Shown here piece by piece: positions 24,974 through 25,999 of a stretch of DNA of 45,810 nucleotides. The stretch's first letter is position 1. Each line of letters starts with the position of its first letter. Below the pieces are notes generated by a model, which made no database searches, was not told the origin of the DNA, and was given only the letters and a program-made list of their open reading frames with translations. The stretch comes from a virus. Lineage: Duplodnaviria > Heunggongvirae > Uroviricota > Caudoviricetes. Both the position numbers and the translations under genes were made by a program. The stretch lies in IMG/VR virus record IMGVR_UViG_2521172732_000010. One strand, given 5' to 3'.

Positions 24974-25999
24974 ATGTCGATGTACACAACCGCCCAACTG
25001 CTGGCGGCAAATGAGCAGAAATTTAAGTTTGATCCGCTGTTTCTGCGTCTCTTTTTCCGTGAGAGCTATCCCTTCACCACGGAGAAAGTCTATCTCTCAC
25101 AAATTCCGGGACTGGTAAACATGGCGCTGTACGTTTCGCCGATTGTTTCCGGTGAGGTTATCCGTTCCCGTGGCGGCTCCACCTCTGAATTTACGCCGGG
25201 ATATGTCAAGCCGAAGCATGAAGTGAATCCGCAGATGACCCTGCGTCGCCTGCCGGATGAAGATCCGCAGAATCTGGCGGACCCGGCTTACCGCCGCCGT
25301 CGCATCATCATGCAGAACATGCGTGACGAAGAGCTGGCCATTGCTCAGGTCGAAGAGATGCAGGCAGTTTCTGCCGTGCTTAAGGGCAAATACACCATGA
25401 CCGGTGAAGCCTTCGATCCGGTTGAGGTGGATATGGGCCGCAGTGAGGAGAATAACATCACGCAGTCCGGCGGCACGGAGTGGAGCAAGCGTGACAAGTC
25501 CACGTATGACCCGACCGACGATATCGAAGCCTACGCGCTGAATGCCAGCGGTGTGGTGAATATCATCGTGTTCGATCCGAAAGGCTGGGCGCTGTTCCGT
25601 TCCTTCAAAGCCGTCAGGGAGAAGCTGGATACCCGTCGCGGCTCTCATTCCGAACTGGAGACAGCGGTATAAGACCTGGGCAAAGCGGTGTCTTATAAGG
25701 GAATGTATGGCGATGTGGCCATCGTCGTGTATTCCGGACAGTACGTGGAAAACGGCGTCAAAAAGAACTTCCTGCCGGACAACACGATGGTGCTGGGTAA
25801 CACTCATGCACGCGGTCTGCGCACCTATGGCTGCATTCAGGATGCGGACGCACAGCGCGAAGGCATTAACGCCTCTGCCCGTTACCCGAAAAACTGGGTG
25901 ACCACCGGCGATCCGGCGCGTGAGTTCACCATGATTCAGTCAGCACCGCTGATGCTGCTGGCTGACCCTGATGAGTTCGTGTCCGTACAACTGGCGTAA
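24974..25999 (+). pseudogene. E: major capsid protein E with in-frame TAA (ochre) at 25670-25672
   Basis: MSMYTTAQLLAANEQKFKFDPLF... reads 232 codons, TAA, then DLGKAVSYKGMYGDVAIVVYSGQ...VSVQLA in the same frame; total length equals lambda gpE (341). Confidence 0.85.

Follow-up and report, generated by a model that had tools for sequence, protein, structure and literature searches.

The prophage described here carries a lambda-type major capsid gene, E, in which a single A-to-T transversion has turned a lysine codon into an in-frame ochre codon (TAA), and this stop is confined to one clone of Escherichia coli. The best explanation overall, held with high confidence, is that this one-base nonsense mutation led to the loss of the capsid and left an element that is inherited as a cryptic prophage. 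The finding is one of ordinary, clonally inherited prophage decay. The features that bear on it are collected in Table 1; the window is the whole 45,810-nucleotide stretch of DNA that was analyzed, and positions are counted along it.

Table 1. Features of the prophage discussed in the text, with their positions in the window.
Feature	Position	Strand	Remarks
IS903-type insertion, 1,057 bp, inside early-left DUF4222 gene	1648..2704	+	Absent from strain 15A
Late antiterminator Q, disrupted	14015..14529	+	4-bp deletion (ATTC) before 14097, stop after codon 27
tRNA-Ile (GAT)	14592-14666		ARAGORN; Rfam tRNA 47.2 bits, above threshold
tRNA-Thr (TGT)	14672-14747		ARAGORN and Rfam
Head-tail joining gene W, frameshifted after codon 44	21473..21678	+	1-base loss in A run at 21602
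Lambda-type major capsid gene E, pseudogene by sequence	24974..25999	+	341 codon positions, internal ochre codon
Truncated ORF, gpE residues 1-232	24974..25672 (stop codon included)	+	PF03864 profile positions 1-214 of 329
In-frame TAA, codon 233	25670..25672	+	Derived T at 25670; ancestral codon AAA (Lys)
Residual in-frame C-terminal ORF, 98 aa, starting at Met244	25703..25999	+	PF03864 profile positions 229-328
Minor tail gene L, frameshifted after codon 37	32268..32965	+	1-base loss in T run at 32375
Side tail fibre gene (stf-like), frameshifted after codon 447	38473..41368	+	Extra A at 39810 relative to strain 15A

The capsid gene is split by an ochre codon

Translation of E yields 232 sense codons, the TAA, and then 108 further sense codons in the same frame (DLGKAVSYKG...VSVQLA) that lead to the normal stop codon at 25997-25999. 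This is the arrangement given in a preliminary description of the same DNA, whose coordinates prove exact. In the ORF listing of the window, the two pieces of E appear as separate ORFs. Both belong to the gpE family by sequence: they match the Pfam profile Phage_cap_E (PF03864, 329 positions) with 149.5 bits for the N-terminal fragment and 82.9 bits for the C-terminal fragment, each above the curated cut-off of 22.9 bits. The stop divides this profile between the two fragments (Table 1). The domain thus spans the stop, so the gene does not naturally end at codon 232. A reading in which the gene truly ends at 25670-25672, which the preliminary description had named as the finding that would overturn it, is ruled out by the split profile together with an intact allele one base away.

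The gene also occupies the expected position among the head genes, following the protease/scaffold gene C and the decoration gene D and preceding FI, as seen in the annotation by the NCBI pipeline PGAP of an identical locus in strain 15A and in gene calls made in 10 retrieved loci. From Nu1 to J, the gene order is that of lambda (Nu1-A-W-B-C-D-E-FI-FII-Z-U-V-G-T-H-M-L-K-I-J). A complete HK97-fold subunit corresponds to an uninterrupted frame of ~341 codons, and the window's E lacks such a frame, with its TAA at codon 233. Because the TAA breaks the reading frame, the locus reads as a gpE-family pseudogene and not as a functional member of the family. A nonsense mutation is an unremarkable way for this gene to die, since 83 of its 341 codons lie a single substitution away from a stop.

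The 98-residue ORF that begins at Met244 is called as a separate gene in seven of the loci retrieved (L006, L007 and L010-L014), with an AAGGG motif just upstream. These gene calls could suggest a split capsid protein, in which the 1-232 piece and the 98-residue piece are both made and function jointly. With only 1 nt between the AAGGG motif and the ATG, the spacing is unfavorable for ribosome binding. The pair would lack residues 233-243, the split is restricted to one clone, and we are not aware of any HK97-fold major capsid protein that works in two pieces. The probability of such an arrangement is close to nil, and no function is expected of the residual ORF. The pieces are better read as the two remnants of one interrupted gene.

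Origin of the stop codon

In a comparison with a phage collection, the window's E is 98.9% identical at the nucleotide level, over the full 1,026 bp, to lambda E and to genes closely related to it. Relative to lambda J02459, 11 of 1,026 bases differ; seven of these changes are silent, and the others produce K215R, N225H, Q278H, and the stop in place of Lys233. The lambda codon at this position is AAA, which bears out the suggestion in the preliminary description that the TAA arose from AAA by a single A-to-T change.

The closest intact allele belongs to E. coli O157:H7 LSU61, whose E (WP_052937980.1, annotated as intact) matches the window at 1,025 of 1,026 bases, the sole difference being A instead of T at 25670. 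No further difference is found between LSU61 and the window in the surrounding 1.7 kb (24820-26554). The LSU61 allele differs at 25670 only and its flanks are unchanged; the stop is therefore a single A-to-T transversion on a haplotype that survives intact elsewhere, and in both lambda and LSU61 it replaces a sense codon of a close intact orthologue. The remainder of the LSU61 prophage is only ~98% identical to that of the window, which is why the two appear to be different mosaics.

The stop recurs in independent assemblies

AIHS01000015.1 (GCA_000250575.2), the source of the window, matches it at 100% identity across 20.7 kb and comes from an assembly that probably belongs to the DEC15 group, as its accession number stands in series with those of DEC15 drafts. 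Among 5,426 complete E. coli genomes, the only one with a 100% match is the O111:H21 strain 15A (NZ_CP077477.1), in which the prophage adjoins icd and has its integrase adjacent. PGAP labels E in this genome as "major capsid protein", pseudo, with an "internal stop", and it is the only gene so marked inside that prophage. The stop in E is thus already known as a pseudogene through the RefSeq annotation of the 15A copy, while a literature search on DEC15 found no account of the prophage. Database entries name the 232-residue product [quoted passage not shown], and its exact sequence occurs in 111 public-collection blocks and on 74 contigs.

Carrier loci were retrieved with 10-kb flanks from 10 assemblies: five at NCBI, four of ENA metagenomes, and one that Logan built from an SRA run; carriers outside the DEC series include SQDS01, CCQX01, and the metagenomes. 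A 55-mer containing the TAA is identical in all 10 of these loci. The preliminary description had allowed that read data might restore AAA or another sense codon at 25670-25672, and the codon is TAA throughout these assemblies.

The window differs from 15A by an extra 1,057 bp (1648-2704) and by 12 small sites in the BLAST alignment, comprising six substitutions and six indels. Five of the indels are single-base changes in homopolymer runs, suggesting an error-prone sequencing chemistry, and on this ground the TAA too could be put down to faulty sequencing or assembly of a gene that is really intact. The T is found as well in the independent complete genome of 15A, in other NCBI drafts, in the Logan assembly, and in four metagenome assemblies, and the change is a substitution and not a homopolymer indel. 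Because the substitution is common to so many independent data sets, the stop is not a sequencing error, and the chance that this conclusion is wrong is minimal.

Distribution and age of the allele

Complete genomes were screened with a 55-nt query centered on the T, under the condition that each 28-base megablast seed contain the changed base. The T allele is present in 1 of 5,426 complete E. coli genomes, compared with 1,240 of 5,426 (1,916 places) for the corresponding query with A. Homologues of E occur in about 3,300 (3,299) of the same genomes. The stop is restricted to one clone rather than conserved across E genes.

Between each TAA carrier and the window, the head module (~17.6-29 kb) shows only 2-6 differences per 11-13 kb. 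The window alone accounts for two of these, one at 21602 and a substitution at 27471, neither of which occurs in the ten other loci. Apart from the stop, E is the same in all 10 carrier loci as in the window. These data fit one origin of the stop in the fairly recent past, as the carriers are near-identical across the head module and E itself is unchanged.

The tail region (~29000-35700, covering the C-terminus of H and genes M, L, K, I, and J) shows dense patches of difference in loci L005-L011, falling to ~90% identity in L011. In L007 and L010, different genes lie downstream of T/H. This patchwork reflects the mosaic recombination common among lambdoid phages, which followed the origin of the stop or fell close to it in time, with modules exchanged around an allele dead for the capsid. 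Since the carriers show this mosaicism, the allele must be old enough for recombination to have occurred, and "recent" is to be taken as a relative term.

The exact intact progenitor allele is found on 33 contigs, fewer than half the number that carry the truncated one (74). Such an excess, together with the persistence of the allele in isolates and metagenomes from several studies and the intact state of the other morphogenesis genes in most carriers, could be explained if the capsid-null allele had been selected, that is, domesticated. In one version, the 232-residue fragment would be produced when the prophage is induced or the cell superinfected, and would poison capsid assembly in related lambdoid phages in a dominant-negative manner; in another, the host would gain from a prophage that does not escape, keeping lysogenic-conversion genes (bor, lom, sieB, and the stress-gene cargo) free of that risk. 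Either role could account for the higher contig count of the truncated allele. The contig counts, however, reflect the sampling of one successful host clone, and the stop has not recurred independently in any other lineage among the 5,426 complete genomes. At a divergence that we infer to be near 1e-4 per site, additional inactivating mutations are not expected even under neutrality; the intact state of other genes in most carriers is therefore uninformative about selection. Further disruptive lesions in the window's own copy (see below) also resemble neutral decay. Selection for the truncated allele is accordingly judged very unlikely, and clonal inheritance of a neutral loss remains the favored reading.

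Suppression and readthrough of the ochre codon

Both tRNA genes of the prophage were identified by ARAGORN and Rfam (Table 1), and neither qualifies as an ochre suppressor, as the preliminary description had stated from their GAT and TGT anticodons. In the identical region of 15A, PGAP does not annotate the tRNA-Ile(GAT) and calls only the adjacent tRNA-Thr(TGT). The length of a T run also differs between the window and 15A at 14582, 10 bp upstream of the tRNA-Ile(GAT); together with 8126, this is one of two intergenic sites with a single-base indel in an A/T run.

Host suppressors, which the preliminary description had proposed to look for, were screened using the MG1655 genes glnU, lysT, tyrT, and tyrU with the anticodon changed to TTA, as 55-mers centered on the changed base and with mismatching spacers. 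The ochre-anticodon forms of tRNA-Gln(UUG), tRNA-Lys(UUU), and tRNA-Tyr(GUA) are present in none of the 5,426 complete E. coli genomes, 15A included. The wild-type tRNA control query was recovered in all 5,426 genomes at a median of 11 places, corresponding to two Gln, six Lys, and three Tyr genes. The screen covers the three classical single-step classes, and the host to which it applies is the sibling strain 15A rather than the window's own strain. Within that scope, neither the phage nor the host supplies a cognate suppressor. Strain 15A also holds one lambda-type copy of E at the megablast level (one place in the record), and therefore no resident copy that could complement the defect.

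Two observations might point to a phage that stays viable by making full-length gpE across the ochre codon, whether through programmed readthrough or with a suppressor tRNA supplied by the phage or its host: all other prophage genes are intact in 15A, and the region downstream of the stop has gained no changes in any carrier. The absence of further decay is, however, expected anyway at the low divergence noted above. The results for phage and host tRNAs speak against suppression, and the occurrence of the stop in a single genome among the ~3,300 that carry a homologue of E is unlike that of programmed recoding sites, where the stop is conserved among relatives; being confined to one clone, it cannot be a site of this kind. 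Moreover, UAA followed by G, as here, is an efficient terminator in E. coli. Some low-level readthrough of the UAA is conceivable from the sequence. A lambda head contains ~415 copies of gpE, and given this demand and the efficiency of UAA-G termination, leaky readthrough could hardly sustain head assembly. A viable phage is thus highly improbable, and the nonsense mutation is taken to be effective.

Predicted consequences for the prophage

In the proposed sequence of events, the A-to-T transversion at 25670 would have taken place in an ancestor of the clone that comprises the O111:H21 DEC15 group and its relatives, in a prophage at icd. Translation must end after residue 232 of 341, and the product, without the C-terminal third of the HK97-fold capsid-E domain, would not assemble into procapsids. 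The prophage would then be defective for particle formation and would now pass vertically as a cryptic element.

In the general description of the HK97 fold, the N-arm, E-loop, and spine helix are followed by the strands of the A-domain sheet (PMC5701804). The stop removes PF03864 profile positions from about 215 onward; taken with this topology, the Pfam coverage suggests that the truncation destroys the fold and that a 232-residue gpE, without a large part of the fold core, would be unable to form capsomers. Lambda genetics leads to the same expectation for both capsid assembly and infectivity, which are probably lost. E is essential in lambda, and its nonsense mutants grow only on suppressor hosts. 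On these grounds, the prophage almost certainly cannot build heads.

Late transcription in lambda is antiterminated by Q and hence resistant to nonsense polarity. For this reason, an induced prophage of the 15A type is predicted to cause lysis and to release tails without heads.

The result matters little beyond annotation and opens no long-standing question. Prophage-prediction tools that score this prophage as "intact" would be wrong, given that it is very likely defective for particle formation. With a lone nonsense mutation in an otherwise intact 45-kb prophage, 15A provides a clean example of the first step of decay, and the stop allele could serve as a clonal marker.

Further lesions in the window's copy

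The window's copy of the prophage carries several lesions beyond the stop in E (Table 1). The IS903-type element has 18-bp perfect terminal inverted repeats, GGCTTTGTTGAATAAATC, and is flanked by a 9-bp target duplication, GTTCTGCCT, at 1639-1647 and 2705-2713. Its DDE transposase ORF lies at 1680-2648 and matches the Pfam families DDE_Tnp_1_5 and DDE_Tnp_1. The late antiterminator Q is intact at 172 residues in 15A; the deletion that disrupts it in the window is not in a homopolymer, and the disruption is known from the window's assembly only. If this deletion is real, the window's strain would express none of its late genes, E among them.

The deletion in W is absent from all 10 other loci. 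Gene L encodes 232 residues in the other loci, and its frameshift is found in the window's assembly only. The homopolymer indels in W, L, and the stf-like gene may be sequencing errors, and they could also represent real decay. Homopolymer errors do not take the form of an IS insertion or of the 4-bp deletion in Q. Taken together, the extra lesions of this copy fit continuing decay. If those in Q and at the IS element are real, the prophage would be dead several times over, with E as the oldest, shared lesion.

Other features of the prophage lie outside the head genes. A lambda cIII thermoregulator element (Rfam RF01804, 88.5 bits) is located on the minus strand at 5883-5941, as expected for a lambda-like early-left region. 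At the opposite end, downstream of the tail fibre assembly gene, a minus-strand cargo at 42069-45448 encodes a manganese catalase, two ferritin-like proteins, a small general stress protein, and a SAM-dependent methyltransferase. This cargo is flanked by a 121-bp repeat (90% identity) at 41787-41907 and 45609-45729, the copies of which belong to full and partial tail-fibre-assembly genes. An Rfam match to IS009 (RF02111) is present at 41711-41909.

Comparison with known systems

Among the known systems closest to the window's E is lambda gpE, an HK97-fold protein of the PF03864 family for which full-length structures have been solved (PDB 7VI9 and 7SJ5). The two genes have length, frame, and gene order in common. 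Unlike lambda E, the window's gene has TAA instead of AAA at codon 233, in addition to K215R, N225H, and Q278H, and it resides in a mosaic prophage at icd with early and lysis modules that are not those of lambda and with two tRNA genes.

Laboratory sus mutants of lambda E (Eam, used in packaging-extract strains) likewise carry a nonsense codon in E, and both these and the window's allele should block head formation in non-suppressing hosts while leaving the tail and lysis genes intact. In contrast to the amber (TAG) codon of Eam, the stop in the window is ochre (TAA); it arose naturally and is fixed in a wild clone in which the screen above found no suppressor.

The cryptic prophages DLP12, Rac, and Qin have likewise been retained after inactivation, and, like them, the window's copy appears to be accumulating IS elements and frameshifts. 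Unlike these elements, the prophage described here is at a very early stage of decay: in 15A, the stop in E is the sole pseudogene inside a prophage of ~45 kb.
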